A stretch of 64,000 bases of DNA from Octopus vulgaris (taxonomy: Eukaryota), in the NCBI GenBank assembly GCA_951406725.2, contig OX597822.1, positions 72,912,001-72,976,000 of the forward strand, in the 5' to 3' direction. Below, one piece after another: positions 7,291 through 63,553 of this stretch (positions are counted from its first letter, which is position 1; each line of letters opens with the position of its first letter). Below the pieces are notes generated by a model. The model worked only from the letters and a program-made list of their open reading frames with translations. It made no database searches and was not told the DNA's origin. The translations under genes were made by a program, and so were the position numbers.

Positions 7291-7329
7291 AAATGATAAT
7301 AATTATTATTATCATTATCATCATTATAT

Positions 7330-8095: not shown

Positions 8096-8098
8096 AGA

Positions 8099-9640
<1,542 letters not shown>

Positions 9641-12461: not shown

Positions 12462-12665
12462 TCTTTTTTATTTGTTTCAATCATTTGACTGCAGCCATGC
12501 TGGAGCACCGCCTTTAGACGAACAAATAGACCTCAGGACTTTTCTTTGTAAGCCTTTCGGTTTCTTTTGCTGAACCACTAAGTTACGAGGACGTAAACAC
12601 ACCAGCAACTGTTGCCAAGTGATGGTGGGGGGAAAATATCGATAAAAAAACAAACAAACACGCAC

Positions 12666-12717
<52 letters not shown>

Positions 12718-12880
12718 GACGGGCTTCTTTCAGTTTTCGTCAACTAAATCCACTCAAAATGCTTTGGTCGGCCCGAGCTTATAGTAGAAGACACTTGCCG
12801 AAGGTGCCACACAGTGGGACTGAACCCGGAACCATGTGGTTAGTAAGTAAACTACTTACCACGCTGCCTCTCCTGCGCCT
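12462..12880 (-). mobile_element. CORE-type SINE with internal (TA)n
   Basis: Reverse complement of the 9735-10099 family; (TA)n at 12670-12716 at the internal microsatellite site. Confidence 0.85.
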
Positions 12881-14112: not shown

Positions 14113-14516
14113 ACGCACACATACATACTATACGCGTACACGTACATACACATTCATACATTATAGACTGCAACCATTAAAAAGAAACCTGTTGCTTTAA
14201 CTACTATATACATTTCAAGTGCTACCTAAACAAACTACAACATACTATACTACTGATTGCGTGCAAACTCTCCTGCTGGTCAAATTTACAGTTATATTGA
14301 CACACAAAAATTGAACATCTAGATAATTTGTTTCACATAGTGTCACACTAACACGTAACTAATAATTTCTCAAATTAAAAATTTGGCGTTGAAGTATCAC
14401 ATATCTAGATAACTCTATAATGCCTTCTCGTGAGGAGTAAATCACTTTATTGGCATCATCCTTACCCCATGAACTAAAGCTACAATGTTGAGCAATACCA
14501 GGACCAATGCATAATA

Positions 14517-14943
14517 CTTTTCTACAAGAGACATAAGACTTGAAATTTGCGGGGGCGGGGTAAGTCGATTATATCGACCCCAATGCGTAACTGGTACTTA
14601 TTTAATCGACCCCAAAAGGATGAAAGGCAAAGTCGACTTCGGTGGAATTTGAACTCAGAACGTAGCGATGGACGAAACACCGCTAAGTATTCCGCTAGGT
14701 GTGCTAACGTTTCTTATTTTTTTATTGTCCACAAGGAGCTAAACATAGAAGGGACAAACAAGGACAAACGGATTAAGTCGATTATATCGACCCCAGTGCG
14801 TAACTGGTACTCATTTAATCGACCCCGAAAGGATGAAAGGCAAAGTCGACCTCGGCGGAATTTGAACTCAGAATGTAGCGGCAGACGAAATACCGCTAAA
14901 TATTCCGCCCGGTGTGCTAACGTTTCTGGCAGCTCTCCGCCTT
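14517..14943 (-). mobile_element. Dimeric Nin-type tRNA SINE
   Basis: Two units containing the reverse complement of gttctgagttcaaattccgccgaggtcgactttgcctttcatcctttcggggtcgattaaat.agtaccag. Confidence 0.85.
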
Positions 14944-15335
14944 AGGAGCAATTTACCGTTAATCTGCCATTACATAAATACGTTTGCGATTGTAATTCGT
15001 AGTTTCATTCCTATAGACACACATGCAAACATATACAAGCATACAACCAGTTGTTTGTGAATGTGTGCACGTGCATGCGTAAGTGCTATTGCGTGTACAT
15101 ATATAAATTGTAAATACGTATTTATATATCTACATAAAATCGGATTAAGAGAAAGTATACGGAAACAGTGTTACTGAATCAGAAATCACGTGACATTACA
15201 TGATGACGCTGAAACACTGAATTAAATTTAGAGTCCATTTGTGGCATTGCAGTAATATATTAAATGCACTTGTATGATTTTAACACTCAGACACCTCTAT
15301 AATATATACATTTTGATGTCGACATAAGTTCCTTG

Positions 15336-17035: not shown

Positions 17036-17070
<35 letters not shown>

Positions 17071-17075
<5 letters not shown>

Positions 17076-17465
17076 TAAATTATAATTTAGAGTATCTAAG
17101 AGATATCACCACGCTGGAAATAGCAGCCAAAACTTGACTTTAAAACGACATCAAATGTTCATACAGCACCAGGAGAGAAGACAAAAAGACAAAATAAACT
17201 AGCAAAAAAGAAAAAAGAATTACTGGAGAATTCCAGATCCCGAATTTCTGGTTCTGTATAAGAAATGCTCGTCTTCTCTCCTGGTGCTGTATGAACATTT
17301 TATGTGGTTTTAGAGTCAAGTTTTGGCTGCTATTTCCAGCGGGGTGGTATCTCTTAGGTACCCTAAATTATAATTTTAATAATAATTAATACCTTTGAAG
17401 GGTTTTTTATTACAATGCTGGCCACCTGATAAGATAGTTATTTAAATAACGATCTTATCCTTATT
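17071..17465 (+). mobile_element. Fold-back unit between (TA)n tracts: 112-bp arms (17071-17182 / 17271-17382) plus ~80-nt tail
   Basis: Arms are reverse complements with about 8 mismatches by eye; TA repeats on both sides. Confidence 0.8.
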
Positions 17466-18488
17466 TATATAAATATATATATGCATGTGTGTGTGAGTGT
17501 GTGTATGTGCGTATACATATGTTTATATATGAATTTTTTGCACGTGTCTCTCTCACGTCCTCTATATATACACACAAATACATCAAATATACACGAGTAC
17601 AGGTCTGTGCTCTCCGTGTGTGCGTATGTGTGTATGTATGTATCAAAGACTTGTCTTTACGTAGATTCAAGAAAAGATAGAGATCTTGGTACGCTAGCCA
17701 CTTTAAAAGAAGCCTGACTGCTCTGAATCAGGAAGCAAGAGAAATGTAATGAGCGTAAACGGCTCAATTAAAGCATCATAAAGCATCAGTTCTATAATAA
17801 TTCTTTAGGGAACAATGTTATCTTCATTAATTAAAATTAATAGAGTATACACTTTGGAATAATTAAGGCATGGGCCAAAATTCATACAATCGTTACATCC
17901 ACAACCTGCTCAATCAGTAGCAGATACATGTCAAAGATAGTAATACACTTGGCAAAAATATTCTCTGGAGAATTTATGGAGAAGAACTGCGTGAACCTAG
18001 AGAAAATATTTATAATTACGAGCTTACAAAAGTTTGTTAATGTTAACACCAAGGAAAATGAAAACCACTTCGCAATTCCACTACACCTCTAGCCTAGGAA
18101 GATAAGATACTTGTCAATAATTCAGTAAGCTGATCCGTAACAGCATAACATCTTATGATAAGTTGTCGAAAAGTAGCGCCTATACCGAGTTAAAAGTATC
18201 AAGTTGTTATCTTAAATAACTGTACACCAGATAAGTCACAAATTCAGATAATGTATATCGTTAATAACTTTCACTCTTTGCTCTGAATTCAATAAATCAT
18301 CACCAAATAAACACAATTATGTATCTGTACCGTGTCTGTCTTTTCTTTGGTAGGTGTCGGTGTAAAGAACCATTTCAGTAATTCGTAAGGCTTCTAATTC
18401 TTACCATTTAAACATAATAGCATTCAAATCTTAATTAATACTCATTTATTTTCAGTTCGCATCACTCTTAACTTTTCCTTATATATAC

Positions 18489-19769: not shown

Positions 19770-20885
19770 CATACCGGTCGCGACTTGCAGTTTCAATATT
19801 ATTTACTGATCGATTACTGAAATCTGTAATATTGATTGAAAATTATGAAAACTATTGTCAATGTATCGAAAGCACCACATTACGGCAGATATAGAACGAC
19901 TTTACCTGCCAATAAAAGAGGGTGGCCGTGGACTTTTACAACAGGAACCAACAATGAAGATTGCCACAATTGGCCTAAATACCTACCTAGAAAACACTAT
20001 GACCTGGATGGTAAAATTTGTCTTAAAGCATGAAATGAAAACATCCTACTCAGTAACAAAATAGGCAACGAAATATCTAAGTGAATTCTAAATACAAAAA
20101 ATTCCAGAATTAGACTACTGCAAACAAGCACTGACAAAGCTGAACGTATGAAAATCCGTGCTATAAGTGCTCCCTTAGATATTCTTAGTGGTAAATGGCA
20201 AGAAAATCTTCTTAGTGGTAAATACCCAAAGAGGGATAATAATGCTGATGTTGACAAAGCCCTTACCCATCAATGGTTAGTGTTTTCTAACTTAAAATCA
20301 GCGACAGAAAGGTTTATCATAGCAGCCCAAATTCAATACCTACCTACAAGAAGCTACCGGGTCAACATCTTAAAGAACGGCAGTAGCCCAACATGTCGTG
20401 TATGTAAACAACAAAATGAAACCATGTTCTCTCTATGTGCAAACTTCTTGTGCCTACAGAGTATCACAGCAGGCATGATAGCGCAGCATAGTATATTCAC
20501 TAGATAATTTGCAAAGACTTGGGTCTGTCTCATTATAAAACCTGGTGGAAACACAAACCACCGCCACTACTTGAAAATGACCATATCTCACTCCATTGGA
20601 ACTTCATCATTCAAAGTGACAGAAAGATAGATGAAAATAGAAGCCAGAGGTTATATTGAAGAATTTCAAAAGAAAATCATGCGTGCTCATCAATATGACT
20701 GTCTCAATCGACATAAATGTATGTGTCAAGACCTACCAACTGAACAAGTATAATGATCTGGAAAGAGAAATTGGCAAAATGTGGAACCTCATGACTAAAA
20801 AAATTCCTGTTGTCATAGGTGTCCTACGAATGATTGCAAAATAGGCTGATTGCTACCTAACTCAGTTACCAAGAAATAGACATAA
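19770..20885 (+). pseudogene. Degenerate R4/Dong C-terminal fragment after (TAA)n
   Basis: HHITADIERLYLPIKEGGRGL, TERFIIAAQIQYLPTRSY...CRVCKQQNET, KYNDLEREIGKMWNL..KKIPVVIGVL. Confidence 0.88.
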
Positions 20886-22563
20886 TCGTGGAGGAGGAGG
20901 CGAGGAAAAAGAAAAAAGGAGGAGGAGGAGGCGAAAAAGAAAAGTTGGAGGATGAGAAGGAGAAGGAGGAGAAAAGAGGAAGAAATAGAAAGAGGGGAGG
21001 AGGAGGGGAAGAAGTGGTAGAAGAAGAAGAAGAGTATTTTTCTACCTACAAGTCCTTGTTCCAATTTTGTAGCTTGTGTTCGGCCAAGCCAGCAAACTTA
21101 CGCTTCATGCAGGGCCTCCTCTCAGTTTTTACTGGTCAAATAGAGGCCATACTAATATGGACCATTTCAGTCCAGATATAAAAATGGTTTTGCATAGGGT
21201 CAACAATCCTACTTACACAAAGTAGAGTTACGAAAACATCAAATACAATTCAGAACCAACGAAATCTGAAAGAGGTAAGCCTTCCATCAGAGAGACACAT
21301 ATCAGGTCGGGATGCTGATGAAGAGCTGAAAAAGTAGGGATCGACCAGGGCGGAAGCAGGAAAGACAGCACCGAGTCGAAATCGGTGAAGGAGAGCCATC
21401 AATGGCCTAAGCTTCATGGAGAGGAGAAGAACGTAATTAAGTATATTATGGGTTTTAGGAAAATTTGGTGTATGATCTTAGCTTCTTTGCATGCGTTTTA
21501 TGCGCGTGTAGGTACGCATGTGCGTACGTAAGAGGAGAACGAGAAAGAGAGGGTGGTAGACAAGCAGATAGATAAAGCGTGACTTAAAAGAAAGAAAGTA
21601 GCGGGTAAGAACATTAGTTGAATTATATAGCCCGACATCGATCAAACACTTCTGTGTACGAATATATATCTAGATACGTTCTTGTTGTTGTTGCATATGC
21701 ACTGTACAAACAAAAACGTGTCAGAACGAAACAATATTTCCGATTATAAAAGAGGATATATAATATTAGATACATTTACAATAGATATAACACACACACA
21801 TATATGTGAAGAGGGAGCACTCACTATCATATTGCTAGTTTAATTACATAATACAATCCAGTGCTAGTTTATAATGGTTATTGACTATGTAATGTTTTGT
21901 GTATCATGTAACAGTAATTATATAATGCAATAATAAGACTATTCTGCGATACAATTTATCCACACACACGCACTCACACAAAAACATAATCGCATTCCCC
22001 TTCCACACACACATACACACGCGCGTTTATATGTATATATATGTGTGTGTGCGTGTGTGTGTCTGTGCGTGTATTCATATGTATATATATATATATATAT
22101 ACGTGTGTCTGTGTATACATGTGTGTATATATATATATATTTATATACTGCGTTCGTCTTTTTGCGTGGTTATGAGTATAACTGTAAAGTGCTCAGGTCC
22201 ATTTTATTTCGTCTGATTTCACCAACTCATTGCTTTGTTTTCAGATACTGCTGCACATATACAACCGTATTCTCAAATATACAAACACACACACACACAC
22301 ATACACTCAGATGCTTTTTCTCACATACTGACAGGTAAGTGCACCTGAAACAAACAGCGTAATAAAATTTAATGATATTTTTCTGCCAGTAAAATTATAT
22401 GTGATATTGTATTTAATTTGTTATTTGTGTGATAAACATTTTGAAATGATAATATAATTATAGCCTCCAGTTATTTTTTCAATTTTCTGCAGAAACTGCA
22501 TTATTTCTACATGAATACCGAGATTTTTGGTGTCGAAAAACAACACTAATGATGATGATGACG

Positions 22564-22599
<36 letters not shown>

Positions 22600-22601
<2 letters not shown>

Positions 22602-23271
22602 GCATTGAGAACAAACTACATAAAATACAGAATTGACAACACGTCAGAAAGTGATAGGTGCAGAAACTGTGGACAAAATGGTGAAACCGTTTGGCATATT
22701 ACCAGTCAATGTACGCCACTAGCCCAGAAGGAATATAAGAGACGCAACGACAATATAGCAAGGCTTGTCCATTGGACATTTTGCAACAAGTATGGACTTG
22801 ACGGAGTAAAAACTTTGGTACGACCACAAACCCGAAATCATCATCGAAAATGATAATGCAAAGATCCTATGGAATTTTTTGATTCAGTGCGACCATGAGA
22901 TAGATAATAGGAAGCCAGACATAAATATAGTATGCCCAGCTGGCAGGCAACAAGGTATGCGATAAGGAAGAAAGAAAAGTCGATAGATATGACAGGTTAG
23001 CTTAGGTGGTTAAGCAGTTGTGGTCGATGAAAAAGGTGGTAGTAGTACCAATAATTGTAGGGGCCCTGGGAACAGTGAGTAAAAATCTTGAGAAGTGCAT
23101 GAAACAAATAGGGGCTGCAATAAGGGTGGAGCACTTGCAGAAAGCAGCACTGCTTGGAACCGCTCGAATACTCCGGAAGGTACTCGAAAAATAAGAGGTG
23201 TTACTTTAGTTCACTGGTAGTGAACAGCTGACACTGTAGTACATCTCCAGCGTTAGAAGCTGTGCAAAGGC
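22600..23271 (+). mobile_element. 5'-truncated Dong-like element between (TAA)n arrays
   Basis: ALRTNYIKYRID...CRNCGQNGETVWHITSQCTPLAQKEYKRRND; VVPIIVGALG...EHLQKAALLGTARILRKVL; TAA at 22565-22599 and 23272-23371. Confidence 0.92.
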
Positions 23272-25050: not shown

Positions 25051-25625
25051 TAAATCAAAGGATACTTTTTACAGAAAGTCATATTAATACATAAATATCG
25101 TGATCCAATAACTTCGTTACTGAAGCCATTTTACCTATTAAACAATCCACACCAAAATACACCTGTCTTGCTAAGATAAGTATATTGACCCTACAAATGC
25201 ATAGTAGTAAAGCAACACTCCAAATCCTATCTTAATGTAATAAATCTTAATCTAATTTAACATACACGTTATCACAATGCATTCACAGATCAAGGGAAAG
25301 AAAATACTTTTGAGAACTTCAAACACACTAGTCCACTGGAATTAGATGTCAAAGTTTGCAGTTGTCACCAACATAAATTCTGTAACGGAAAAAATATTTG
25401 TAAAAGTGTTGAAAATTTAACAAAGACTGCAATATAAGACATGACTGGTAAACATGCGTATCCAACATGCTAAACATTCTACATGGGTAGTTAGCAGCAT
25501 CACTGATATCTGTACCACGCGCTATCTCACAATACCAGACTGTGCCAATGGGCAACAGTACCAAGCAAATATCTTTAGACATTGCTCGAAACTCAGTGAT
25601 CAAAATTCTATCCTGTGAAGGCATA

Positions 25626-26517
25626 CGAGATCTGATCAATACGTTCCGGACTGTTGCCATAGTGACGAATCTAAATCCCGCAGAGTGAAGCCGCCTGATA
25701 CTGATTGACCTCAGACGCCACTGTGCATGTGCACTAAACTTTAACATTTTAGCTTACTACCACTCTTTACAGAAGTGCTTGGAAGGAAGGTGTGTAGCGT
25801 GTGATCGTCACATTGTCCATGACAGAGAAAGTTGTCAAGGCGATACCTGCTCAAAGGCCAATGCAAAGTTGCAGAAATTGTATAAATAGGATTGTATGAT
25901 CCGCGCAGAAGTGTAGGAGTGGTACAGACGTTTCCAAGATGGCCCCAAATGGTCGATATTGACGAAAGTTTTGGGAGAACCGCAACCAGCAGAGCTGAGA
26001 GAAACATCGCAGATGTGCGTGCAATTGTGAGAGAAAATTGTCGAATCACCATCCGTGAGTTATCAGAAGAAGTGCAGATTAGTTAGGGTTTACTTCAATC
26101 CATTATCACTTTCGATTTGGAAATGAGACACGTATCTGTCAAGTTTGTACCCAAAGTGCTATCAGCTGACCAAAAAGACACTCCGGTTTCAATTGCACAG
26201 GATCTCCTTGATTATGTCGAGAACCATGAGATTTCTTGAAAATTTCGCGTAGGCCCCTGAGCAGGTTTCGTCAAACATTTGGCAACATTTGATGCAGATT
26301 CTCTGCTCAACTTACTTTGACATGGTAAAAGAGGTGATCACACGTTACACATCTTCCTTCCAAGCATTGCTTTAAACATGGAAACGAAGATAGAACATTA
26401 AACCTTAGTGCACATGCACAACAGAGTTCAAGGTCAATTTGTTCCAAACGGCTTCACTTTCTGTGCTTTAGCTTCGTTACCATAGGTACAGTCCGCATAC
26501 TTATTGATCAGTTCACG
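25626..26517 (+). mobile_element. Internally deleted mariner element
   Basis: TIRs cgagatctgatcaatacgttccggactgt / acagtccgcatacttattgatcagttcacg with TA TSDs; HTH remnant DIDESFGRTATSR..NIADVRAIVRENCRITIRELSEEV and VSVKFVPKVL; catalytic domain missing. Confidence 0.9.
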
Positions 26518-27782
26518 TACACAAAAACAGAGCATAATTTGATAACTTAGTTACACCAAAGAGCCAATAGCAATAGAGAAATCTAACCCCTAAGTTCTTT
26601 TCATAAGTGCAAACACCTAGGGCCTGAAATAATTGTTATATAACTATGGATAACTATGTATATAATACTTATAATTATCTGTATCGACGAGACAACGAGC
26701 GAGTCACTGTCTTCACTGAAATTTATTTGAAATACCAACGAAATATCTTTTAATTCTCACCCTACCATCAGGAACATTGATATCTCCGAGACGCTGGCTA
26801 CTAGACGTCAAAATAAACAATTTCATGAATAGATAAATGGTTATAACTTTAATAGCTTTGAACGTAAGCCTGTTTGATCAGGGATGATCCTAAAATGTGT
26901 AAAAATACTCATACACAATTATGTGTGAAAATACTCATTATTGACATATTTAACCCACGCATTTTCATTTCAAAATCTCAAGAGAAATTTAGATACCCCT
27001 GAAACATACAAGTATACATGACAATTGAAACTACATACATAAATACATCAAAACTGTCAATTCTATTTTCGCTTTCCACTCAAACGAAAGAAAAATAAGA
27101 ACAAGCTGTCCAACAAACTACATGTCAGAGAACTAATCTTACGTAATGGACATAACCACTTCCATAAATTGCATTTTCCTGGGTTACCAAAAATATCTAT
27201 CCATAGATGAATATAATTTGCTTTCAAAGTATATCTGCTAAACCTCCACACGTCCTCAAAACATTCACTCAGCTTCATAGGTAGTTAACGTCACGTTCAC
27301 ATCGTTCTTCCATTGTACAACTGTACATCGTTCTGCAGAAAATTAAATCAAATCTACTTCGAGAATGCATTGTCGATCTAGAGCAATGCCTGCCATATTA
27401 ATTATCTCTTTTTGTTAATTATCTCAGCATTAATTTTACTTGGTGTGGTCATGCTGCAGTACTAACTTAAAAAATCTAGTTAAGCAAATTGAACCCAATA
27501 CATATATTTAAAAATTTAGTGCTTATTCTATCGTCTCCTTTGCCAAACAGCTATGTTACGGTGACATAAACAAACAAACACTGATACATATATATTTATA
27601 CATATATACATAAATCAGGAGGATGAGTCGTTCGCAATTTTTCAACTGAAGAGCAAAAATATATGTCACCAGAGCGACTGATGGCGTCATTCAGCACCAG
27701 CATTCCTAGAAATAAGAGTCAAAATAATTCATAGCCAAAATAACGCGCCGTCTTATCTACTCTCACACACACATATATATAC

Positions 27783-27994: not shown

Positions 27995-28039
27995 ACAGTG
28001 ACTTCGAGGTTTCGGCCACTTAAGCCATCATCAGACTGT
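27995..28039 (-). ncRNA. Minimal type-I hammerhead ribozyme with intact core
   Basis: Minus strand: ACAGT-CTGATGA-T-GGC(ttaagtg)GCC-GAAA-CCTCGAAG-TC-ACTGT; 5-bp stem I, near-palindromic stem III, GUC triplet. Confidence 0.88.
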
Positions 28040-28299
28040 GTTACATTTGAGTTCATCTTGAGCTGATACAGTCTCTCTTATCCATTCACAATTAATTGGG
28101 AAATATTGTTACACAGACAAATAAAGGTAACAACAAACAGTAAACACTGTCAATTATGCACCGATGAATCATACCACATTCTTACATTTAAGAACTAAAT
28201 TTTTAACAGAAACTTCATACAAGTGCAAAATCCCCAAAACATTAAAACATTTCAAGCCAATTGATTTTCTAACGGCTAACCCTAATCCTTCCACACCGT

Positions 28300-28856: not shown

Positions 28857-29230
28857 AGGCGGCGCGCTGGCAGAAAGGTCAGCGGTATTTCGTCTGCCGC
28901 TACGTTCTGAGTTCAAATTCTGCCGAGGTCGGCTTTGCCTTTCATCTTTTCGGGGTCGATTAAATAAGTACCAGTTACGCACTGGGGGTCGATGTAATCG
29001 ACTTAATCCGTTTGTCTGTCCTTGTTTGTCCCCTCTGTGTTTAGCCCCTTGTGGGTAGTAAAGAAATAGGTATTTTGTTTGTACGTTCTGAGTTCAAATT
29101 CCGCCGAGGTCGACTGTGCCTTTCATCCTTTCGGGGTCGATAAATTAAGTACCAGTTGCGTACTGAGATCGATCTAATCGACTGATCTCCTCACCCAAAA
29201 TTTCGAGCGTTGTGCCTAGAGTAGAAAAGA
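28857..29230 (+). mobile_element. Dimeric Nin-type tRNA SINE
   Basis: ggcggcgcgctggcagaa head, gagttcaaat B box, gcctttcatcctttcggggtcgat...agtaccag twice, joined by aaagaaataggtattt. Confidence 0.88.
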
Positions 29231-30304
29231 ATATATCTGCTGCATTTCACACAGCATCTGACTGGATTCGTCACTATATATTAGAAAGTGTTACGTGGCC
29301 CTGACCTAGACGTGGGTTTGCTGAGCATGACCTTCAAGCGACTATTGCCTTCAAGTGTGTAATACGTCTGCTTTATCTTCACAAGATCAAATATAATTAT
29401 TTCTTTCGACAAACGAAAAAGCATTTTCTTCATCGACTTTATATTTTCATAGTGTAAGATTTTTTAACTGCGTTAAAAAAGAAACGTTAGCACTATTTGA
29501 TACAGTAAATATATTTTCAATGCAGATCTAATTGTTTTAATCAAACGTTTATTGCGCAATTAGTCTACATTATAGGAAGTAAAAGTCTTACAAATAATGA
29601 AGAAAAAAGAAACTTCAATTCTATTATGTTATCAGAAAATTTGAATTCAATAATAAAGATGACCAGAAGCTGATAATTATTAAATGTAAAGAAATATAAG
29701 TAAATAAATCATAATATAATGCAATGTAATTAAAGAACAATTTCCCAGGAAGCTTGTGATAAACAGTAAAATTAATGTAAAATTTGTAATAGAAGCAATC
29801 AATTACAATACACGTTTTATAGGTTTTCATCTCAGAGATGACTTACCATATCATTCAACGCTAGATAGCCAGCAGTTGTAAATGTAAAAAGTCCAAAAGA
29901 AATTCACTTTACATATAATGAAAAAAACATTTAATGGTGAAAGAAGAATTATATCTACAATGTGTTATTGTATTCAAGCATAAAATCACTTATAAAATAA
30001 GAACGACGTAATATTTATCGTGATGTGGTTAGGAATAAAATAAGAGCCGAATAGAAATACGATTTATTTCCTCGATGTCATTGTTATTCATTTAATACAA
30101 GTGTCGTATCAAGCCATAAAACGAAATGCTACTGTCCTTCATTTTCTAAACAGTGTTCATATGCCTGTAAGCATGTAAACACCTGTATATGTAGAGGCTG
30201 GGCGAACACCTGATCGGGAGGTCGAGACGTTTGCTTCGCATTTATGGGTTTTCGGGAATGGCATTACTGCACAGCTTTTTCAGCAAGAACATTCTGTAAT
30301 TGCA

Positions 30305-30655
30305 AGGCGGCGAGCTGGCAGAAACGTTATTCCGCCGAGGTCCATTTTGCCTTTCATCCTTTCGGGTTCGATTAAATAAGTACCAGTTACGCACTGGGGT
30401 CGATATAATCAGCTTAATCCGTTTGTCTGTCCTTGTTTGTCCTCTTGTTTGTCCTCTTGTTTGTCCCTTGTGGGTAGTAAAGAAATAGGTATTTCGTCTG
30501 TCTTTCCGTTCTGAGTTCAAATTCCACCGAAGTCAACTTTGCCTTTCATCCTTTCGGGGTCGATAAATTAAGTACCAGTTGCGTACTGGGGTCGATCTAA
30601 TCGACTGGCCCTCCTCCCCCAAAAGTCTGGGCCTTGTGCCTAAAGTAGAAACGAA
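30305..30655 (+). mobile_element. Dimeric Nin-type tRNA SINE
   Basis: Same two-unit structure and junction as 28857-29230. Confidence 0.85.
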
Positions 30656-31545
30656 TATTCTGCAATTGCCTTTGATTGATCCACACACGTACTGAGGAAA
30701 AAAGAACAGGCTTGTCGGTTGTTGTGTGGAAGACTGTCGAACGATATACCTGTGATTTATATCAGTATGACAGTAAATTCCAGCCAAAACTAATGGAAGG
30801 AGGATAATTCTCCCGCAGCATGTTAAAATGCATCTCTGTTTCGATTCCTTGAAGGAGAATAATTGATGTTAAATCTACATAAGCAAATAAACTTTCAATA
30901 TATTCCTTATTGCAAAATCCTTTAACAACAGCTGTCTATAAAACGTGAAGTTCATAACTTGATATATACAGGCTCCACAGCCCACCGGAAATTTTAAATA
31001 ATGAGTAAACAATCAATTTATAACACGTTTGCCGTTCCTCATTTTATTTTTTACATTCATTATTACGAATCCATTTTGTTTTGCAAAATCCTTTAACAAC
31101 AAGGGTTTAAAATCGCAAGCTCTAAAATTTATATCTCAACGTACTTTAGATTTCGAAATTATGTGAAATAAATAGACTTTTTTCGACTTTGTTTTCTGTA
31201 TTATTCTTAATACTAGGCTTCCGAATATCTGTGTTACATGAGGTCTTGATTACAAACACATTCAAATAAAACCAGTTTTTGTTTCTTGACACATTTTTGT
31301 TATAAAAATAATTAACATTTCCAATTTATTCGAAATAATTCCCTGTAACTAAATAACACGAATGATTGTAATGCATTCCGTTTCGTTCCAGTAATAAATC
31401 CAATTTATTTTTTTTTCGTAGACGAGAATTAGCATCTCATTCCCAAATAAAGAATCGAACAGACAAAGATTTATTGTTTTGGAAATTCCTAAAATGACAT
31501 AATGGTAATTGTTTGTTATGTTGAAAATAGCTAAACTAAACAATT

Positions 31546-34533: not shown

Positions 34534-34559
<26 letters not shown>

Positions 34560-34564
<5 letters not shown>

Positions 34565-35003
34565 TTAATAAGGGTGAGAGAATTAGATACTAATTTAATA
34601 GTATATTTATTCCACACCAAGTGGCCTAGTGCTACGAGAAACCTGGATTATTATAATATTTTATAACATATTACAATATTTTCACAAAATAAATATAAGA
34701 GAGTGGTCACTATATTGATCACCCTAGCACCAGTTAATCCAAAAGGTTTCAACCACGAAAAATACATGTTTCCCATGAAAGCCAGTACGACTGTTAGCTC
34801 ACACGGACAGGGCAAATAAAAAATAAAAAATAAAAAATTGTCCCAAAATAATCTGTATTTTTGTTATTTTTTATTTGCCCTGTCCGTGTGAGCTAACAGT
34901 CGTACTGGCTTTCATGGGAAACATGTATTTTTCGTGGTTGAAACCTTTTGGATTAACTGGTGCTAGGGTGATCAATATAGTGACCACTCTCTTATATTTA
35001 TTT
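34560..35003 (-). mobile_element. Fold-back unit between (TA)n tracts with perfect 140-bp arms plus ~125-nt tail
   Basis: 34687-34826 is the exact reverse complement of 34864-35003 by eye; 37-bp spacer; (TA)n at ~34535-34558 and ~35012-35049. Confidence 0.9.
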
Positions 35004-35006
35004 ATT

Positions 35007-35053
<47 letters not shown>

Positions 35054-37560: not shown

Positions 37561-38840
37561 TGACATAACACTCCCAATGAGTAACCTTACTTTTCGACGC
37601 CACCGGAAGCAAACAGAGAACCTACTGGTATGTATTGATCAAAAGTCCATCTAGATACATTGAACGACTGCTGTTTCCCGCAGTAGAAATATTTCCATTT
37701 GCTATGCGATGTAGATAGAAGATATTATTGATCGTTATTGGTTATTCGCTTTTATTTCAGTTTGTGTTCTTTTTTTCTACGACTTGAAATTATACTTAAA
37801 TATATAGCCGTAAAACTGTCTTTTTTTAAATTTGGTCTTATTATATGAATTATGATTAATTATTCAACACAGTGATTACATATATACATAAATTTCACAG
37901 TCTGTGTCAGTTCAAATATTATAGTTGTATATAAAACGTCATATTCTAGAAATTAGCTGTAAAATAGACGAGAATGTAGTTACTCTAGCAAATAACGGAA
38001 AAAAATTGATGGCTAATCTTTAATTACTTTTCTACCTTGATCATCTAGCATTATCTAGTTTCTATGTACAGAAGCAGACGGATTCTGAGGCTGAAGCTAT
38101 TTCTCAGTATTTCTGTTCTTTCACCTAACTCGTAGTTGGTTTGTTCTTTTGTTTAAACGGTATGTTTATACTGGCTGATCTTAACCAAAAACGTTTATAA
38201 ACACAAAAGCAACAAAGACATAAAATTAAAAAAGAAAACATCATAGGCAATTACTAGAATGTCGTAAATATAAAGATAGTCAACAAAAGCAAAATACATA
38301 TCTTGGTAATGTTTTAAGTGTCAAATAAAATAAGATGAAAAACAAAGCTTTAGAAAACCAACCAAATAAACAGAAAATGACGTCCTAGTACTAATAACAT
38401 AAGAACGAAAAGAGATCAACCGGTAGATACGAGAAAAACAAACAAATGTATGAGCAACAACGAGATTCGTATGAGAAAACAAAAACACATGAATAGAAAA
38501 TGTCATCAAACGATGGTTTTGACTAGGAACTCGAGTGAGAGAAAGGAATCAGGGTAAAAATATAATCAACATTCATAGAGTACAATTTTCTTTCGTTTGT
38601 CGAAAAGCAGTATTTTCTTTTACACAAAGATGCACGCACACGCTTGCACACACACGCGTACACACATATAGGTATTTATGTATGAATATACACACAAGCA
38701 CACACACACACACACACACACACACATTGTATGTTCTCCATCATGTTCATAAATCAATCATGTTGCCGGAAATACATGCAAATCATTGGCGATTTTTTTC
38801 CTTCCGTTTTCCTTTTCTATTGGACTTTCCTCTGTCTCCT

Positions 38841-38875
38841 GTTTCTGAAGAAGAGCTTCGCTCGAAATGTAAAAC
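38841..38875 (+). ncRNA. Minimal hammerhead ribozyme motif (one stem III substitution)
   Basis: GTTT-CTGAAGA-A-GAGC(ttc)GCTC-GAAA-TG-TA-AAAC; ATGT fits a CpG-decayed ACGT palindrome; (TA)n ~90 nt downstream. Confidence 0.75.
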
Positions 38876-39118
38876 CACCTTTCATTCCTTCCTTGAGCGT
38901 TTACTAATACTTTACATGTACCACGTCCTCGCGTTGTTTTTTTCTTTGTTCTTCGTTTTACAAAATATATATATATGCAATGTGTCCGTACAGTCATGGC
39001 CAGATTTCAAAACTATCTTAACGTATATTTGAAGGGCGTAGTTTTGCAAGTTATATCAATAACTAGTTCTGAAATTCCACCATGACATTATAGAAACAGT
39101 ATATAAAATTAGTACGTA

Positions 39119-39280
39119 TGGCACAGAATGGCTGTGTGGTAAGTAACTTGCTTGCCAACCACATGGTTCCGGGTTCAGTCCTACTTGTGGCACCTTGGGC
39201 AAGCCTTCTAAAATAGTCTCTGACCGACCAAAGCCTTTTAGGTGGATTTGGTAGACGGGATCTGAAATACGCCCGTCGTG

Positions 39281-39348
<68 letters not shown>

Positions 39349-39513
39349 CGCTCGTGTATGTGTGTTTGTGCTTGTGTGTTTTTTCACCCGACTTCGCTTG
39401 ACTACCGATGCTGGTGTATTTACGTCCCCGTAACATAGTGGTTCGGCAAAAGAGACTGATAGAATAAGTAATAGGCATACAAAGAATAAGTCCTGGGGTC
39501 AGTTTGTTCGACT
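39119..39513 (+). mobile_element. CORE-type SINE with internal (TA)(TG)n
   Basis: tggctgtgtggtaagtaacttgc...gggttcagtcc...accttgggcaag; microsatellite 39281-39342; tail truncated. Confidence 0.85.
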
Positions 39514-39754
39514 AGCAGATGTGTCCAGTAGAGAAGAGTGGCAGAAATAACCCGAAACCAGAACTCGTTTGCTGGTCCCGTCACTAGCAGGTGGTAGGGA
39601 TTCGCTTCCCAGCTCGCAATGTATCAGATACAACACTATATCGTAAACAAGCTACAGGAGGTGTCCTCTTGGGGTTTAAAAATCGCAGTAGAGTCCGTTC
39701 AAACGGACAGCCATGTTGAAGGAGCTACGAATGTTACTACATAGTACAACTGCG

Positions 39755-40329: not shown

Positions 40330-40880
40330 AAAGGTGAAGAAATTTACCAAGGCTGGGCCAAAGATGAAGGTGCCTGACTTTAAAGTTTGGAGTCTGGTCT
40401 TTCAAATCACCTCTTTCGCATTGGCTACTACAAAGAGATAACAAATCTAACCCTCCTCCGATATGAAATCAGGCGGGTCAATTTTTACTATTGACTTAGT
40501 CGATAGCTGTACTCTTCTTGTACTTGACAACAGATGTTCAGCATAAACCCACATGTCTGACACCTCCGAACACTGAACAATAGCATGCAGGACGGTTTCC
40601 CTACCCTGCCCACAGCTTCTCCAGGTCGATGGGCTGTGGTCACCACGCCTTGTGAGCTTGTCCCGAACAGGTAAGTCTTCTCTGTAACACTGCCGAGCTA
40701 GTGACTTCTGAAAGTTATCCAGGATCTTCAGCCCGAATGTATGTTGGAACATGGCCAGCTGGTTTTCGTCGGGACCTAGGGTCTCCTATAAGGTATCGTC
40801 ACATTGGCACTCTACCAACCCTCTATAGAAAGATGCGGTTGAACCATTTCCACAAGCATTGCCTGAACGGCGGAATAGCA
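40330..40880 (-). pseudogene. Older Tx1/L1-type ORF2 C-terminal fragment
   Basis: DNFQKSLARQCYREDLPVRDKL...RSCGQGRETVLHAIVQC, homologous to 57637-58341. Confidence 0.85.
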
Positions 40881-41010: not shown

Positions 41011-41250
41011 ATCGAAATGTTAGCGCTAAGCAGTGTTTAGGCATGAACAATATCTAGCTAGGTTAGTTGAAGTGTGCTTAGCGGTATTTCGTCAGTCTTT
41101 AAGTTCTGAGTTCAAATTCCGCCGAGGTCGACTTTGCCTTTCAACTTTTTGGGGCTCGATAAATTTATTATCAGTTCCGTACTAGGGTCGATCAAATCGA
41201 CTACCCCTCCACACCCTCAAAATATCAGGCCTAGTGCCTATAGTAGAAAG
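41011..41250 (+). mobile_element. Nin-type SINE with atypical head; first ~119 bp repeated at 41510-41628
   Basis: Direct repeat with 499-bp period, including taagcagtgtttaggcatgaaca.tatctagctaggttagttgaagt. Confidence 0.75.
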
Positions 41251-41652
41251 GACTATATGAAGATTTATGCGTATATCCTTTTTTTAATACTTAACACTAA
41301 TGTTATAAATATACTTTTATTTCATCTGCTGTCATTTTAAATGAAAAACTGTTAAAATTAAAAACTCTGTATGGAGTACTGCACATTTCTCTTATAATAT
41401 GTGCTAAGAAAATTCCTGCTGTTATAAATTGATTTCCTATCACGAGAAACTGATGTTTTCTCCGCACATACGATAATATGCGTATGTTTAGGCGGGAGAA
41501 CTCTATCACATCGAAGTGTTAGTGCTAAGCAGTGTTTAGGCATGAACATTATCTAGCTAGGTTAGTTGAAGTATGCTTGGCGGAATTTCGTCTGTCTTTA
41601 CGTTCTGAGTTCAAATTCCGCCGAGGTCACATCTACAAATACAGTCTTCATA

Positions 41653-42175: not shown

Positions 42176-42285
42176 GCTAGATACGCATACATAAACACAA
42201 TTCTATATTTAAGAGTGAGGAATTATGTACATTATTTACATTATTTACATTTGATGGATATTTGTCCTCATCTTGTTTGTTGTTA

Positions 42286-42329
42286 AAACAACATTTCGGC
42301 TGATATACCCTCCAGCCTTCATCAGGTGT
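42286..42329 (-). ncRNA. Minimal hammerhead ribozyme motif (slightly decayed)
   Basis: Minus strand: ACAC-CTGATGA-A-GGCTG(gagggtatat)CAGCC-GAAA-TG-TT-GTTT; perfect 5-bp stem II; one mismatch each in stems I and III. Confidence 0.75.
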
Positions 42330-42569
42330 CTTGGCTAAATTTCGAACCTGGGTTCTCATTCCTAAGGTATTTTTTGATATCATTATTATACAGTATAAGC
42401 ATATACACATGTTGTTCAGTTACTACAACTAGCACCACCACCAACAACAACAACAACACCACTGCTACTACTACTACTGCTACTACTCTTTTCCTTCCGA
42501 AACGCGATATCCGTAGGCTTTATCAATTGTCTGTCTGCAACATGTTCTGTTTTTAAGTGTGCTGTGTAG

Positions 42570-42973
42570 CATACTCTTTTACTCTTTTATTTGTTTCAGT
42601 CATTTGACTGCGGCCATGCTGGAGCACCGCCTTTAATCGAGCAAATCGATTCCAGGACTTATTCTTTGTGAGCCTAGTACTTATTCTAACGGGCCCTTTT
42701 GCCGAACCGCTAAGTAACGGGGATGTAAACACACCAGCATCGGTTGTCAAGCGATGTTGGGGGGGAGGGGGCAAACACAGACATACAAACACATACACAC
42801 ACATACACACACATACACACACATATACATATATATACATATATACGATTGGCTTTCAGTTTCCCTCTACCAAATCCACTCACAAGGCTTTGGTTGCCCA
42901 AGTTGCCACGCAGTGGGACTGAACCCAGAACAGGTGGTTGGTAAGTAACTTACCACACAGTCACTCCTGCACC
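42570..42973 (-). mobile_element. Near full-length CORE-type SINE
   Basis: Reverse complement of the family, with internal CA/TA tract at 42775-42845. Confidence 0.88.
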
Positions 42974-43293
42974 TAACAGTTATTGAGTTGGCGTAGTAAA
43001 CTGTCATAGCTGCAGAAAACACAAAATGTCACAACGCCATATCACTGCTTCTGTCTTTGGTGGATCTCTTTTGCTAGAGTAGACAAAGAACAGACGTTTA
43101 AACTGACAATCAACACCATTAAGTCATCTAACCTTGGGTGTCGCATAAATCACTATTTATGTTTGTTTATGTCTTGAATCAAAGTTAAAAGGAGAATCAA
43201 TCGATTTTGCAGCGACTGCAGTTAGATTCATTATTTAAAAATAATGTCACTGTATACGCACACAAAAACTTGTGCGGACACAGAAATAAAGTG

Positions 43294-43457: not shown

Positions 43458-44733
43458 GTTCAGTTGTCCAGCAAGTTCTGAGCCTTTATTAAGTTAAATC
43501 TTTTAACACTTCATTGAACACACCTGAAATGCAACAGTTAAAACTTTGGCGTTGATTGAAACGGTAGTGCATTTCCTCTTTGCTCCTGACTAAAAACAGA
43601 TTTATCTTTCCTTCTTGTTACATTTTATTGACATTTGAAATAGATAACCAAAAATTTCATATTCGCGTTGTAATACTTTTCTCTTTTTTTTTTTAAACAG
43701 GAGAAAATGCTGCAAAGACTTGCAAAAACATTTGTGAAGTTTATGGTGATGATGCTGTAGCTGAATCAACTGTTCTAAGGTGGTTTGCAAAAGTTAAAAC
43801 TGGAGAGTTTATCGTAGAAGATGACAGTCCCGGCGGTGGAAGGTCTATAAAATTTGATGAAACTGTTTTGAAGACAAAAATCTCACATATTACGACTAGA
43901 CAACTTGCAGAGCAGTTGAAAGTTTCTAGAAGTACGGCTCATAAATACTTAGTGAGGCTATGATACATTTCTCGAATTTATGTATGAGACCTTCACAAAC
44001 TCTCAGAGAGGAAATTCTTGGACCGGTATTCCGTTTATGATATGGTTTCCAAACGGAATGAAAGCATGCCTTGTTTTAAACAACTTGTGACTGGAGATGT
44101 ATGAAAACGTACTGCGAAAATGATCCTGGAATTTGCGTAAGGATCTCCCATAACAATAACCAATGACGAATATCCATACCCCAAAAGCTATGCTTTGCTT
44201 TTGGTGGGAACATAAAGGCATTATTTATTATGAGCTTCTCTCACGAAACCAGATTATTAATTCTGATGGGTATTTTCATCAGCTGGCTAATTTGAACCCA
44301 AAAAATCAAAGAATTGAGGCCAAAGATTGCCAACAAGAAAGGAGTAGTGATCGAACAAGACAATGCCCGACCACATGTACCTCTGCTACCCGAATGAAGT
44401 TACATAAACTTGGCTGGAATCTCTTACCCCATCCACCATATCTTCCTGATATTGCACCATCCGACTACCGGTTGTTTTTGTTTCTACAGAACTCATCCAA
44501 GAAAAAACAATTAACGATTTAGATGAGGTCAAAATGCATCTAGATAATTTTTTTTTCTTCAAAAGCAGTTAAATATTATGCTGATAGAATATTTAAAATT
44601 GCCTGATAGATGGGCAAAAGTCATTAACAATAATGGAATTTAATTTTTTTAACACAATTTATTGAAAGGTCAATTATTTATATCCCTTTTTTGCATATCA
44701 ATAAACTCTCAGAACCTTCTAGATAATCTAATA
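43458..44733 (+). mobile_element. Near full-length decayed mariner
   Basis: ICEVYGDDA, LVTGDV, PKAMLCFWWEHKGIIYYELL, DNARPH, LPHPPYLPDIAPSDYRLF; degenerate TIRs agttgtccagcaagttctgag / ctcagaaccttctagataatct. Confidence 0.9.
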
Positions 44734-53249: not shown

Positions 53250-53900
53250 TTCTGTTATAGGTAGAAGGCCTGAAGTTACGAGGTAGTGAAATATTCAGTG
53301 CTCAGCTGGTACTTACTTCATCAAAATCAATGCTCAACTGGTACTTATTTTATCGAATCCGAAAGGATGAAAGACAGTGTTCCTCGGTGGAATTTTAACT
53401 CAGAATTTAAGGTCAGAAGAAATTCTGCCAAGAATTTTGTCCGGCGTGGTAACGACTCTTTTCTAATCTAGGCACAAAGTTCGAAATTTGGTGGGAGGAG
53501 ACCAGTCGATTAGATCGACCCCATTACGCAACTGATACTTAATTTATCGACCCCGAAAGGATGAAAGACAAAGTCGACCTCGGCGGAATTTGAATTGAGA
53601 ACGTAAAAACAGTCGAAATACCACTAAGCATTTCGCCCGGCGTGGTAACGATTCTGCCAGCCCGTTCGCCTTCGAGTAAACCGTAACATTGATTCCAGAT
53701 TTTGGCACTAGTTGAGCTACTTCGGGGTGGAGATTGAGTCGATTAAATCGACCCCAGTGCTCGACGGTCACGCATTTGCTTTATCGGCTCCGAAAGGATG
53801 AAAAGCAAAGTCAATATTGGCGGAATTGGAAATTAGAAATTGAAGGCCAGAGGAACTTTCGCTAACCATTTTGCCCGGCGTTCTAACGATCCTGCCAGCC
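53250..53900 (-). mobile_element. Tandem cluster of three Nin-type SINE units
   Basis: ccgaaaggatgaaa.ac/gcaaagtc at ~53360, ~53552 and ~53790. Confidence 0.8.
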
Positions 53901-54486
53901 CGTTTCAGTTCAAGTAAAATGTAATAATGAAACAATAAAATAATAATTGCACACAGCGTCGACTATATGAATCGACTCCATTCCTATCTATTTATTTTAT
54001 ATGGTTGCAGGATTGAGTGTGTGATAAGGAGCTTGCTTCAAACTACATAGTTCTAAGCACACACTCACATACACACACAAGCACAGGCGCACACCCACAC
54101 GTTTCTCTCCCGCTTTCTCTTTCTCTCTCAGCTATGTTGTGTGAGTGAACAAACATATTTCCCCATGGAGAGGATGCTACTCTATTGTAGCTCTATTCGT
54201 CACTTCCTATTAAACAATAACAACAGCAAACTGTTTGCTCAAAGAGAAAGAATGGTAGAGTGAATTAGGGAGGTAGAAAGAGGTAGAAAGGAAGAGAGCT
54301 AAAGAGAGAGAGAGAAATACATAGAGAGAACTAGAGAGAGAGAGAAGAGGACACAGGTGCTCCTTAAAGTAAGTATGGAATTGGTTATGAAGGCAGCATT
54401 GTGTGGACGCGGGACATATCTCCTCCAGGCTAAAACATCAGTTTGTCACACCTGTCGTTTCTCCCAAGATGTGAGACCTATTGCCT

Positions 54487-56474: not shown

Positions 56475-56525
<51 letters not shown>

Positions 56526-56691
56526 AAATAGTGGCACAAAAAGGTACCAAATGTTGCTTGAAATAGTAGTCGATAACCGTTCTACGCTAAGTAAAGCTTC
56601 GCTGAATGTTTAGAGGCAAAGATAAGTGCGGGCAGCAAATATAAAAAGAATTCGTCTTAATTCTAGGAAGAATGCCAGAAAAATGGACTAT

Positions 56692-56762
56692 CTAGTATTT
56701 GCGTTTCGAAATTACTCAGAATATGTTTGGTATCGTAAAAGTGTTTGGTCCTCGTCAGCTAG
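56692..56762 (-). ncRNA. Hammerhead motif, left arm (decayed)
   Basis: Minus strand: CTAG-CTGACGA-GGACC..(long loop)..TTTC-GAAA-CGCAAA-TA-CTAG. Confidence 0.7.
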
Positions 56763-56884
56763 GTCTACCGAAGAGAATGGATTTATTTTTTCACTGATGT
56801 CGATTCTGTTTATGGCTGGTGTTGTTAGCCGAGTATACAGGCATTGATGCAGTGGATATTTTAAATATAGTCTCTTCGGTAGGA

Positions 56885-56954
56885 CTACCTGATGAGGAAC
56901 AATCAGTTTTACGATAACAAACCTATTCTGAAAAGTTCGAAACTCGAGCACTAG
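56885..56954 (+). ncRNA. Hammerhead motif, right arm (decayed)
   Basis: CTAC-CTGATGA-G-GAAC..(34 nt)..GTTC-GAAA-CTCGAG-CA-CTAG; palindromic stem III, U16.1 replaced by C. Confidence 0.7.
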
Positions 56955-57289
56955 GTTGTTCATTTCTCTGGGGTACTTCCTAAAAGAAAGACGAAATTTT
57001 TCTATATGCGCCGCCTGAGCTCATTTTTGCCTCTGTACATTCAGTGAAGCTTTACCCAGAGTCGAACGGCTATCGCCTGATATTTCTAGTGTAATCTGGT
57101 AACTTGATGTGCCACTATTTCCTATTTATGATTGTGCATTTACGGTGCTATATCTCAATGGAAAATAATATTATTGTATTGTAATAATAATAATAAGAAG
57201 AATATATATATATGCAAGGTGAATGCTGCCATAATCGTCACGTTGAGTTGTTTTTTTTATGTAACAGGGAGTTTTGTCGGTCTCTCGCT

Positions 57290-57467
57290 CACCTGCACCT
57301 CACATGTAGAAAGCAAGGGGTTTGTAGTCTGAGGAGTTGGGAGGCCAGATGTTAGGGGTCATGTGGTCGCAGAAATTGTCTGACAGGCATGAGTGTGTTA
57401 CCCTGCTTGTGCTTGTGTGACATGTTGCAGTGTCCTGTTTCCAGTCACAGTGTCTTCCAGCACCCTG
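57290..57467 (-). mobile_element. Tc1/mariner-superfamily catalytic fragment (maT/DD37D-like)
   Basis: WKQDTATCHTS...SDNFCDHMTPNIWPPNSSDYKPLAFY (cf. QQDxAPxH...WPPxSPDxNPLDY). Confidence 0.7.
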
Positions 57468-57610: not shown

Positions 57611-58860
57611 AGCACGCTTTCCCGCAGCTCGTTTCCATGACCGAACTGCAGTCGTGGATCAAAAAGAGGCCGAGGAAGGGCGATTGGCACCGCGAGTGTC
57701 GCGTTGCTCTCAAGCAACTCTGCCGTCCCGGGTCGACCTTGAGTGACTTCAACACAACCAAAGCATTCTATAGGGGATTAGTGGAGGGGAGGTACGACAA
57801 CGAGCTCGGGGCGAACCTGGACGTCGACGAGGAGTACCTGACCCGCCTGTTCAGGACGACTTTCGGGCCAGGGCCCATGGACAACTTCCAGAGATCCCTG
57901 GCCTGGCAGTGCTACCGAGAAGCGCTACCCGTTCGGGATAAGCTCTACAGACACGGCTCGAGAAACACGGGGCCGACCTGCCCGAGATGCGGTCAGAGCG
58001 ACGAAACCGTTCTGCACGCACTCGTGCAGTGTCCAACAATTTCCGACCTGTGGGCTTATGTCGAACAACTGCTGTCACGTGTGGGACCAGTCGGTTTATC
58101 AGCTGAGCCTATCGTCAATATTGTCACGCCTCCTTCCTTCAAACGGGAAGGAAGAGCTATTTTCATCATCCTTGTGGCTATGGCGAAAGAATGTATCTGG
58201 TGGACGCGTCTGAAAGGATTGGAGACAAACACTTTCCTCTCTGGTCAATCTCTCATCAACTTCTTCAAGTACCACTTGAAAAGGAAAGTGAGAGTAGAGA
58301 GGCAAGTTTTGTCTAGCGAATGTTTTAAAAAAGATGGGTGAATGTAGCAAGGATGGCACGTATGAATGACGAAGCCACCTTGAGCATAATCCTATGAACC
58401 CAGAAATTGAAAACAGAGGGTTACCCACTTGCAAACAAATGTGGTAACATATAACAATATTGACCAAGGTTACCGTGGTCTTTTTCGTAGGCTTTTCTTC
58501 CCACGGATAACCCTTACTTGCTTTCCCCTTTACACCATATATCATAACACTGTGATACACGATCCCTATTGATCGTTCTTTTTTTTCCTCTTCCCCTTTT
58601 TTTCCCCTTTTTTCTTCTTTTTTCATTTCTCTTTCCTTTTGTTCCTTTTCCTTTTCTTTTTTTTTCTTTTTATTCTTTTTATTTTATTCAATTTTTTTTT
58701 GTTTTGTTCTTTTCTTCCCTTTTACGATCCCTCTTGATCGAAAACCTACGCCACCCCCTTTTTTTCTTTTTGTTTTTTGTTCTCTTCATCCCCCAAAAGA
58801 AAAGCTCTACCTTGTAACTTGTCCCATCTGTGTGCAGCCCTGTGTGGCCAATAAAGAAAC
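57611..58860 (+). mobile_element. Young 5'-truncated Tx1/L1-clade retrotransposon inserted in (TCTA)n
   Basis: ORF 57637-58341 with SLAWQCYREALPVRDKL, CPRCGQSDETVLHALVQC and AKECIWWTR; T-rich 3' UTR; AATAAA at 58850; TCTA repeats on both sides. Confidence 0.9.
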
Positions 58861-62998: not shown

Positions 62999-63044
<46 letters not shown>

Positions 63045-63553
63045 ATATATATATATAATCGTCACTAAATGTGACTAAGGATGCCGATACATCGACATTG
63101 CTAGAAACAGGGGTAAGATACTCCTTGTCCTGTTGGAAGAGCGCAAATGTATACACATATTCTAGAAAGATTTTTGATTCGGTAATAGGGCGGTTTCTTC
63201 CCCTGTCAGCGCATATGTATATGTATATGCGGTCTTCCTATAGGACAAGGAGTTTCTTATTCCTACTTATAGCAATCTAGCTGTCTTGTCACGCTTACTG
63301 ACATCTAGCGACGACTGAATTTTTCCTTTAGGATATTATAATGCGTCTAGGTGTTTATATTAGTTTTTTGTATACGCATTAGGATTCCGCTAAGTCATCC
63401 ATAAATTTCTATGGTAAATATATATATAAACTGACTGGCGGAATTATCCGACACCAACTGATCGGACAGCTCAGACTGACAAAGCGTATACGTGTATGTG
63501 TTCGTGCGTGTATGCACATATACATATGTCACACCCACACCACACACCCACGC

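Follow-up and report, generated by a model that had tools for sequence, protein, structure and literature searches.

The fold-back element at 56522-57196 of the window, as we call the whole 64-kb stretch of Octopus vulgaris DNA analysed here, is on balance probably a dead insertion of a non-LTR-retrozyme-type parasite on Penelope-like elements (PLEs), a decayed multi-copy, non-coding unit likely measuring ~423 nt. The element aligns with its own reverse complement at 74.0% identity over 615 columns (blastn, E 6.9e-100) and reaches a local self-complement score of 231 compared with a maximum of 28 in 500 shuffles. The arms proper (56522-56785 and 56862-57125) match at 204 of 264 columns (77%), corresponding to a K2P distance of 0.27 substitutions per site, and an earlier sequence-only reading, which had described them as diverged homologues of ~270 bp, is borne out. 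The same reading placed a ~75-nt tail on one side and TA repeats at both ends of the element. The tail is indeed one-sided, its length being ~71 nt, and the element is bounded by (TA)18 on the left but by only (TA)5 on the right. No target-site duplication is readable because the TA runs at both ends mask any. The features of the locus are the following.

56488-56523, no strand: (TA)18, the terminal run of a longer TA/TACA/CA microsatellite patch and likely the insertion target
56522-56785, minus strand: inverted arm, a tail-less copy of 56862-57125 beginning at the 3' foot of the native hairpin (204/264 columns)
56689-56765, minus strand: left hammerhead, type I, decayed (core at 56758)
56789-57196, plus strand: family unit in direct orientation, covering 408 nt of the inferred 422-424-nt monomer (junction arithmetic)
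56790-56856, plus strand: native RNA stem-loop of the unit and centre of the fold-back (folding; family contigs cross it)
56862-57125, plus strand: direct arm, the part mirrored on the left (self-alignment)
56882-56957, plus strand: right hammerhead, decayed (core at 56889)
57126-57196, plus strand: one-sided tail of ~71 nt that ends in an (AAT)n run and belongs to the repeat family (family depth)
57203-57212, no strand: (TA)5, right remnant of the target microsatellite (sequence)

The element belongs to a repeat family that is present in public sequence runs. Nine of 24 listed runs, representing three organisms, contain part of the stretch, and four of them (X1, X2, X8 and X12) were compared at 80% likeness. 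The locus itself is found in all three organisms with 0-4% differences. Contigs of the locus cover 56893-57167 in X1 (1 difference), 56595-56837 in X2 (0 differences) and both 56710-56929 (4 differences) and 56942-57187 (10 differences) in X8. The inversion junction is real and not an assembly artefact, since two of these contigs bridge it (56710-56929 in X8 and 56595-56837 in X2). Further contigs match at ~80-87% identity over the locus, with up to 30 per listed place in X1; summed depth was not taken as copy number. Family contigs, one of them with a junction, are also present in X12, which may be an RNA run, and we do not count them for or against expression. In X1, 13-30 distinct contigs carry the family letter at eight of the nine listed right-arm places in 56850-57057, with fewer at the listed places 56987 (11 contigs) and 57021 (7 contigs). 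The tail shares this pattern, as depth remains at family level up to ~57200 and three family-majority letter changes are found there, before X1 depth drops to 99 at 57228-57259. With 40 of 230 rows of letter changes listed, 21 listed changes fall within 56559-57080. Fifteen of these equal the letter of the other arm, three introduce a third letter and three set both arms against the family. That 15 of 21 changes restore the other arm's letter indicates that the two arms descend from one family sequence and decayed independently. Searches for further copies returned no match in JGI metagenomes (two patterns) or in IMG/VR, and neither blastn nor nhmmer located a third copy within the 64-kb window.

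Contigs of this family join the end of the unit to its start. Three distinct junctions, read on one strand, connect 57189 to 56789 through 21 letters (X1 and X12), 57196 to 56785 through 11 letters (X1) and 57189 to 56791 through 25 letters (X2), giving unit lengths of 422, 423 and 424 nt, respectively. Reading the three junctions on opposite strands also yields head-to-tail joints, but with lengths of 346-359 nt, so that the one-strand reading is preferred. A further tail-to-start joint (56776/57189) is present in X1, X2 (two contigs) and X8, so that junctions of this type are seen in contigs of all four compared runs. Among the contigs listed, none holds two whole units or two complete adjacent hammerheads, and the copy in the window is inverted and without a tandem. 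On sequence grounds, the element thus likely represents a multi-copy family that includes the tail and has a head-to-tail monomer of ~422-424 nt, which would make the direct copy at 56789-57196 (408 nt) nearly one whole unit.

The same joints bear on the principal alternative, in which the unit is the pseudo-LTR (pLTR) of an autonomous, hammerhead-bearing PLE and the copy in the window a heavily 5'-truncated insertion consisting of an inverted pLTR, a pLTR and a tail. No distinct non-autonomous family would then exist, and the head-to-tail joints would reflect truncated copies in partial tandem. In several contigs, 60-270 nt of sequence outside the listing do lie upstream of 56787-56805, and ORF-linked copies may exist among the 41 joints and 691 loose ends beyond those listed. 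Independent random truncations should however not produce three distinct junctions with the same start, a similar AT-rich spacer and near-equal lengths, and these equal-length junctions argue for a closed non-coding unit. There is also no coding frame or Pfam match in or beside the unit; stop-free frames of at least 55 aa that overlap it and are not of low complexity return no Pfam match, in keeping with the absence of an ORF noted previously. We regard the pLTR origin as rather unlikely, though it is the main rival.

Head-to-head joints occur in other copies as well, at positions different from those of the copy in the window: 56569 to 56944 (X1, X2 and X8), 56772 to 57031 and 56571 to 57146 (both X1), and 56623 to 57022 and 56624 to 56788 (both X2), where several of the X2 joints rest on only 30 letters at one side and inserted letters are given for few joints. 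This variation suggests that each insertion likely builds the mirror arm anew. The joint from 56624 to 56788 meets the same stem-loop foot in a derivative without a hammerhead (56861 to 57022). Derivatives of this kind occur in X2, where the joints 56861 to 57022, 56948 to 57026 and 56964 to 57026 delete the hammerhead wholly or partly and resume the unit near 57022-57026. They show high depth over the 3' part and may represent a younger, ribozyme-less subfamily.

Both arms contain a hammerhead motif, and the two are oriented divergently: the left core lies at 56758 on the minus strand and the right core at 56889 on the plus strand. A pattern derived from the two arms matches these two sites only in the window and nothing in 100 shuffles; built from the arms themselves it is circular and shows uniqueness only. 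As had been proposed, the two motifs bear different lesions. Stem I retains 5 of 7 pairs in each arm and helix III 1 of 2, stem II is complete in the right arm (4/4) and half paired in the left (2/4), and the scored core positions are all intact in the left arm while U16.1 is changed in the right. Over both arms 27 of 28 scored core letters are intact, U16.1 being supported by the left arm alone, as the listed family rows do not include it. For the left hammerhead, the cut is predicted between 56696 and 56695. Neither arm by itself passes a strict type I descriptor (core CUGANGA...GAAA...UH, stems I-III, open at stem I), but the column-wise union of the arms does. The union possesses a stem I of 6 Watson-Crick pairs (7 with G.U) and, after a single additional nucleotide, a stem II of 4 pairs, and its helix III is palindromic throughout. 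None of 20,000 shuffles of the union columns gives any descriptor match, and none of 40 shuffled windows gives a single-sequence match. The earlier proposal of a complete type I consensus with a palindromic stem III is therefore upheld, the union being the form that passes. The check by Infernal-type hammerhead models that it had also called for went the other way, as no Rfam family matches within 56530-57190 even at E 10. For the whole window, no hammerhead family is present among the 150 of 169 Rfam matches listed, which are microsatellite-driven miRNA matches below the gathering score. Among the rows listed, with two full sequences, family-majority letters fit the pairing state at 56691, 56698, 56702, 56883 and 56960, the remaining positions being unchanged or beyond those rows.

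Folding of a best-of-two-arms model yields probabilities of 0.98 for stem I, 0.22 for helix II and 0.0 for helix III as a monomer, while a helix III homoduplex of 8 bp is predicted to have a stability of -10.7 kcal/mol. A helix III that is absent in the monomer and stable as an 8-bp homoduplex fits cleavage as a dimer in tandem RNA, in line with the earlier suggestion that a palindromic stem III permits dimers. Dimer cleavage is reported for PLE and axolotl hammerheads in the available text of PMC4209133 and PMC7229834. The extra nucleotide after position 9 (between 9 and 10.1) and the long helix II are, together with the palindromic helix III, described as PLE-type features in the available text of PMC4209133, and the first two favour the pLTR origin. 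So does the attribution, in the same text, of opposite-strand hammerhead pairs 100-700 bp apart to truncated PLEs.

At the centre of the fold-back, 56790-56856 belongs to the monomer as a native RNA stem-loop and not to the mirror arms. These 67 nt fold at -25.6 kcal/mol on the plus strand versus -12.6 kcal/mol on the minus strand, with 8 of 28 pairs being G.U on the plus strand and 0 of 19 on the minus strand; by sequence alignment, where the number is a difference of two counts, G.U pairs come to 5 versus 0. Other family contigs run across this centre, and the point at which the mirror arm begins, 56862, is the stem-loop's 3' foot. The fold-back described by the sequence-only reading thus stands, with a centre that is a structure of the unit rather than a decayed part of the arms. 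As DNA, the cDNA strand of the centre folds at -4.9 kcal/mol on this decayed copy. No G.U excess is found in the arms proper (17 versus 11, p 0.34), and the figure for the whole element (22 versus 11, p 0.08) is partly due to the centre. We accordingly rejected the idea that RNA-level selection or an A-to-I footprint marks the arms. The decayed copy gives no support (z -0.9) for compact self-pairing of the monomer.

The complete plus strand of the element folds at -314.5 kcal/mol (z -26.9). This fold, the common presence of the locus in runs of three organisms and the largely intact core letters could be taken to indicate a working locus, in which either two divergent ribozymes would trim transcripts made in both directions or the host would retain a hairpin RNA from which small RNAs are produced or which is edited. 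We find such a role scarcely credible. Both ribozymes fail the descriptor, the arms have diverged by 0.27 substitutions per site without G.U excess, and the hammerhead region is barely better conserved between the arms than the remainder (81% versus 76% matched). The fold gives this idea no stronger support than any inverted repeat would. Folding of a read-through RNA, whichever strand is transcribed, predicts that the long hairpin takes up 13 of the 14 scored core positions. The notion of two divergent ribozymes acting as a pair is not supported, as they lie on opposite strands, both broken and with nearly all of their core positions predicted to be buried. With both ribozymes broken and read-through RNA burying them in a 300-bp hairpin, the copy in the window is predicted to be dead and its ribozymes non-functional; the copy itself is probably an old, inert fossil. 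The opposite-strand hammerhead pair is probably a by-product of a known insertion pattern, not a new device.

Three more units with the layout (TA)n-arm-arm-tail-(TA)n are located in the window at 17069-17384, 34687-35003 and 63059-63314 (within the surrounding stretches 17040-17480, 34535-35050 and 63007-63430). Their tails measure ~85, ~128 and ~100 nt, and the units are unrelated in sequence to the element and to each other. The tail-less arm lies next to the longer TA run in each of the four units, an observation on four cases only. Isolated hammerheads are present at 28034 (28000-28045, minus strand), which passes the strict descriptor, at 38845 (38837-38880, plus strand), which passes it weakly, and at 42325 (42285-42335, minus strand), which is decayed. 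They are of the PLE type with an extra nucleotide before stem II, and no PLE ORF lies beside them. The sequence-only reading had taken the element to unite these hammerheads and the TA-flanked hairpins as a single system. A link by descent is not supported: none of eight stretches resembles the unit beyond shuffles, and neither blastn nor nhmmer finds a third copy in the window. A defensible form of the idea is a shared insertion architecture in which one mechanism would serve several unrelated families. The other TA units and hammerheads may then have been made from other families by an enzyme of the same kind.

The layout of these units also concerns a third alternative, a DNA-level product in which the hammerhead would be a passenger: either a fold-back DNA transposon or MITE, or else an inverted duplication formed after the element had inserted. 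Long inverted arms, TA at both ends, the lack of an ORF and a mariner-type transposase remnant elsewhere in the window (43697-44519) are all compatible with such a product. MITEs carry fixed, symmetric terminal inverted repeats in all copies, however, and this family differs in having a tail on one side that is part of the repeat. Among its other copies, some are joined head to tail, and others are inverted about different centres or carry deletions. A G.U bias of the RNA type marks the centre, and four unrelated units within 64 kb share the arm-arm-tail layout. A DNA-level origin is in our view very unlikely.

The remainder of the window is rich in other mobile sequences. A very high-copy repeat fragment occupies 57260-57460, where X1 summed depth rises to ~1,000,000 compared with ~36 for a single locus. 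The 3' part of a non-LTR retrotransposon ORF is encoded at 8067-9488 (plus strand) within (ATT/AAT)n repeats, showing a zf-RVT match and a restriction-like endonuclease motif; from its motifs we take it to be R4/Dong-like. Decayed relatives of this ORF are found at 6585-7818, 20085-20507 and 22515-22853. Two zf-RVT-bearing non-LTR retrotransposon ends at 57613-58341 (plus strand) and 40450-40785 (minus strand) are presumably L1/Tx1-like. The sole named relative among 11 matches of a neighbouring retroelement ORF comes from Argonauta hians (59%). The mariner-type transposase at 43697-44519 (plus strand) is broken and retains HTH_48 and Transposase_1 matches. An inverted repeat at 25624-26519 has 212-nt arms at 74% and a 470-nt spacer and is without TA flanks. 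Two dispersed short repeat families, both probably SINE-like, have many copies in the window: one at 9731-10099, 12463-12880, 39126-39514 and 42574-42974, and a second one at 14514-14945, 28881-29240, 30329-30663, 41075-41258 and 53328-53930. Penelope, Dong-R4, L1-Tx1 and mariner families are described as expanded in coleoid cephalopods in the available text of PMC8967140.

The insertion as a whole carries the footprint of an endonuclease-bearing PLE. Head-to-head inversion, a one-sided tail and a TA target characterize such insertions in the available text of PMC8557442, PMC3846280 and PMC8969392; PMC8557442 describes the inverted copy as 5'-truncated and the TA preference as a bias, and PMC3846280 reports palindromes at the inverted junctions of PLEs. 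The octopus copy shows the head-to-head inverted copy, the one-sided tail and the microsatellite target, with a tail of 71 nt compared with the 30-40 bp given for PLE tails in the published text available. This same footprint would be left under the pLTR origin. An autonomous PLE would carry an ORF with RT and GIY-YIG domains, which this copy lacks, and none of the 247 frames of the window matches an RT or GIY-YIG core family; the matches among these frames are zf-RVT, mariner families and sub-threshold noise.

Under the retrozyme reading that we favour, a PLE RT/GIY-YIG enzyme acting in trans would insert the unit into a TA microsatellite and build the mirror arm in the process. The source RNA would be a head-to-tail array or a re-ligated circle, presumably copied without a hammerhead cut because the cDNA spans the cut site intact. 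In a tandem source RNA, two hammerheads could pair via the 8-nt palindromic helix III and release monomers able to circularise. After nicking of both target strands, the enzyme would begin two cDNAs at RNA positions ~71 nt apart (~57196 and ~57125), and this spacing would account for the tail being one-sided. One of the cDNAs would extend through almost the full unit and its stem-loop to 56789, the other would halt at the 3' foot of the stem-loop (56862), and the two ends would join head to head. Alternatively, a single cDNA folding back at the stem-loop would give the same product. We lean only slightly toward two cDNAs, since the centre folds weakly as DNA and the tail-less end is defined. 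A PLE protein is reported to cut and extend both target strands in vitro at AT-rich sites, and its RT to use two internal start sites whose spacing equals the tail, with uncleaved RNA as the main substrate (available text of PMC11167929). The literature searched yielded nothing relevant on twin priming or self-priming in PLEs.

Retrozymes are described as tandem repeats of 150-450 bp that carry type I hammerheads (Cervera and de la Pena 2020, PMC7229834) and treated as non-autonomous PLE derivatives (Li, Clavereau and Pollet, bioRxiv 2026.07.22.740005) in the available text of these sources. The octopus family is non-coding, falls within this size range, carries a type I hammerhead and is multi-copy, and judged by its sequence it likely belongs to the non-LTR retrozymes. 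The original description of the element as non-coding, hammerhead-bearing and PLE-derived or retrozyme-like is strengthened by this multi-copy family with head-to-tail junctions. Like metazoan non-LTR retrozymes, the family has units of that size and of low GC, each with a single type I hammerhead whose 2-bp helix III ends in a palindromic tetraloop, and it shows head-to-tail junctions and dispersed monomer derivatives. Within molluscs, the available text documents a non-LTR retrozyme of 350-390 bp in the mussel. The octopus unit differs from metazoan retrozymes in its long loop II region, the additional nucleotide that follows position 9 and the native 67-nt stem-loop. The copy in the window was inserted with an inverted head and a tail, an arrangement that the available text of PMC7229834 and bioRxiv 2026.07.22.740005 does not describe for retrozymes. 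The element shares inverted arms, a junction palindrome, a tail at one end, a TA target, a hammerhead inside the repeat and a cut site intact in DNA with the architecture of endonuclease-bearing PLEs, but has no ORF body, has the longer tail and appears to close on itself via a short spacer rather than to continue into an ORF. Schistosoma mansoni PLE remnants similarly display two opposite-strand type I hammerheads 100-700 bp apart, with an extra nucleotide between 9 and 10.1, an enlarged helix II and a dimer-dependent design (available text of PMC4209133). The octopus hammerhead differs from these, besides the host, in keeping a 6-nt palindromic insert in helix III and a stem I of 6-7 pairs, and its stem I and helix III are closer to the canonical invertebrate form.

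Both the inverted-arm-plus-tail structure and opposite-strand hammerhead pairs, the latter in 2014 (PMC4209133, as far as its available text goes), have already been published. In the literature searched, with supplements and repeat databases outside its scope, we found no report of retrozymes or hammerheads in octopods, and that literature likewise contained no description of inverted-head retrozyme insertions. Published arguments for the mobilisation of retrozymes by PLEs, in the text available, draw on shared hammerheads, co-occurrence and pLTR homology, and the mechanism is called open there. We tentatively propose a cephalopod retrozyme of ~423 nt that bears the full Penelope footprint, with a direct arm of about one monomer lap and an inversion anchored at the native stem-loop, a combined claim that we hold with less than even confidence. 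If true, it would provide structural evidence, beyond co-occurrence and sequence likeness, that PLE enzymes copy animal retrozymes from uncut or circular RNA, and it would name cis-elements for in vitro work. Breakpoints at the foot of an RNA stem-loop would offer a testable account of how inverted pLTRs form, and a family that combines retrozyme-type junctions with PLE-type inverted-head-plus-tail insertions would tie retrozymes and PLEs together by insertion structure.
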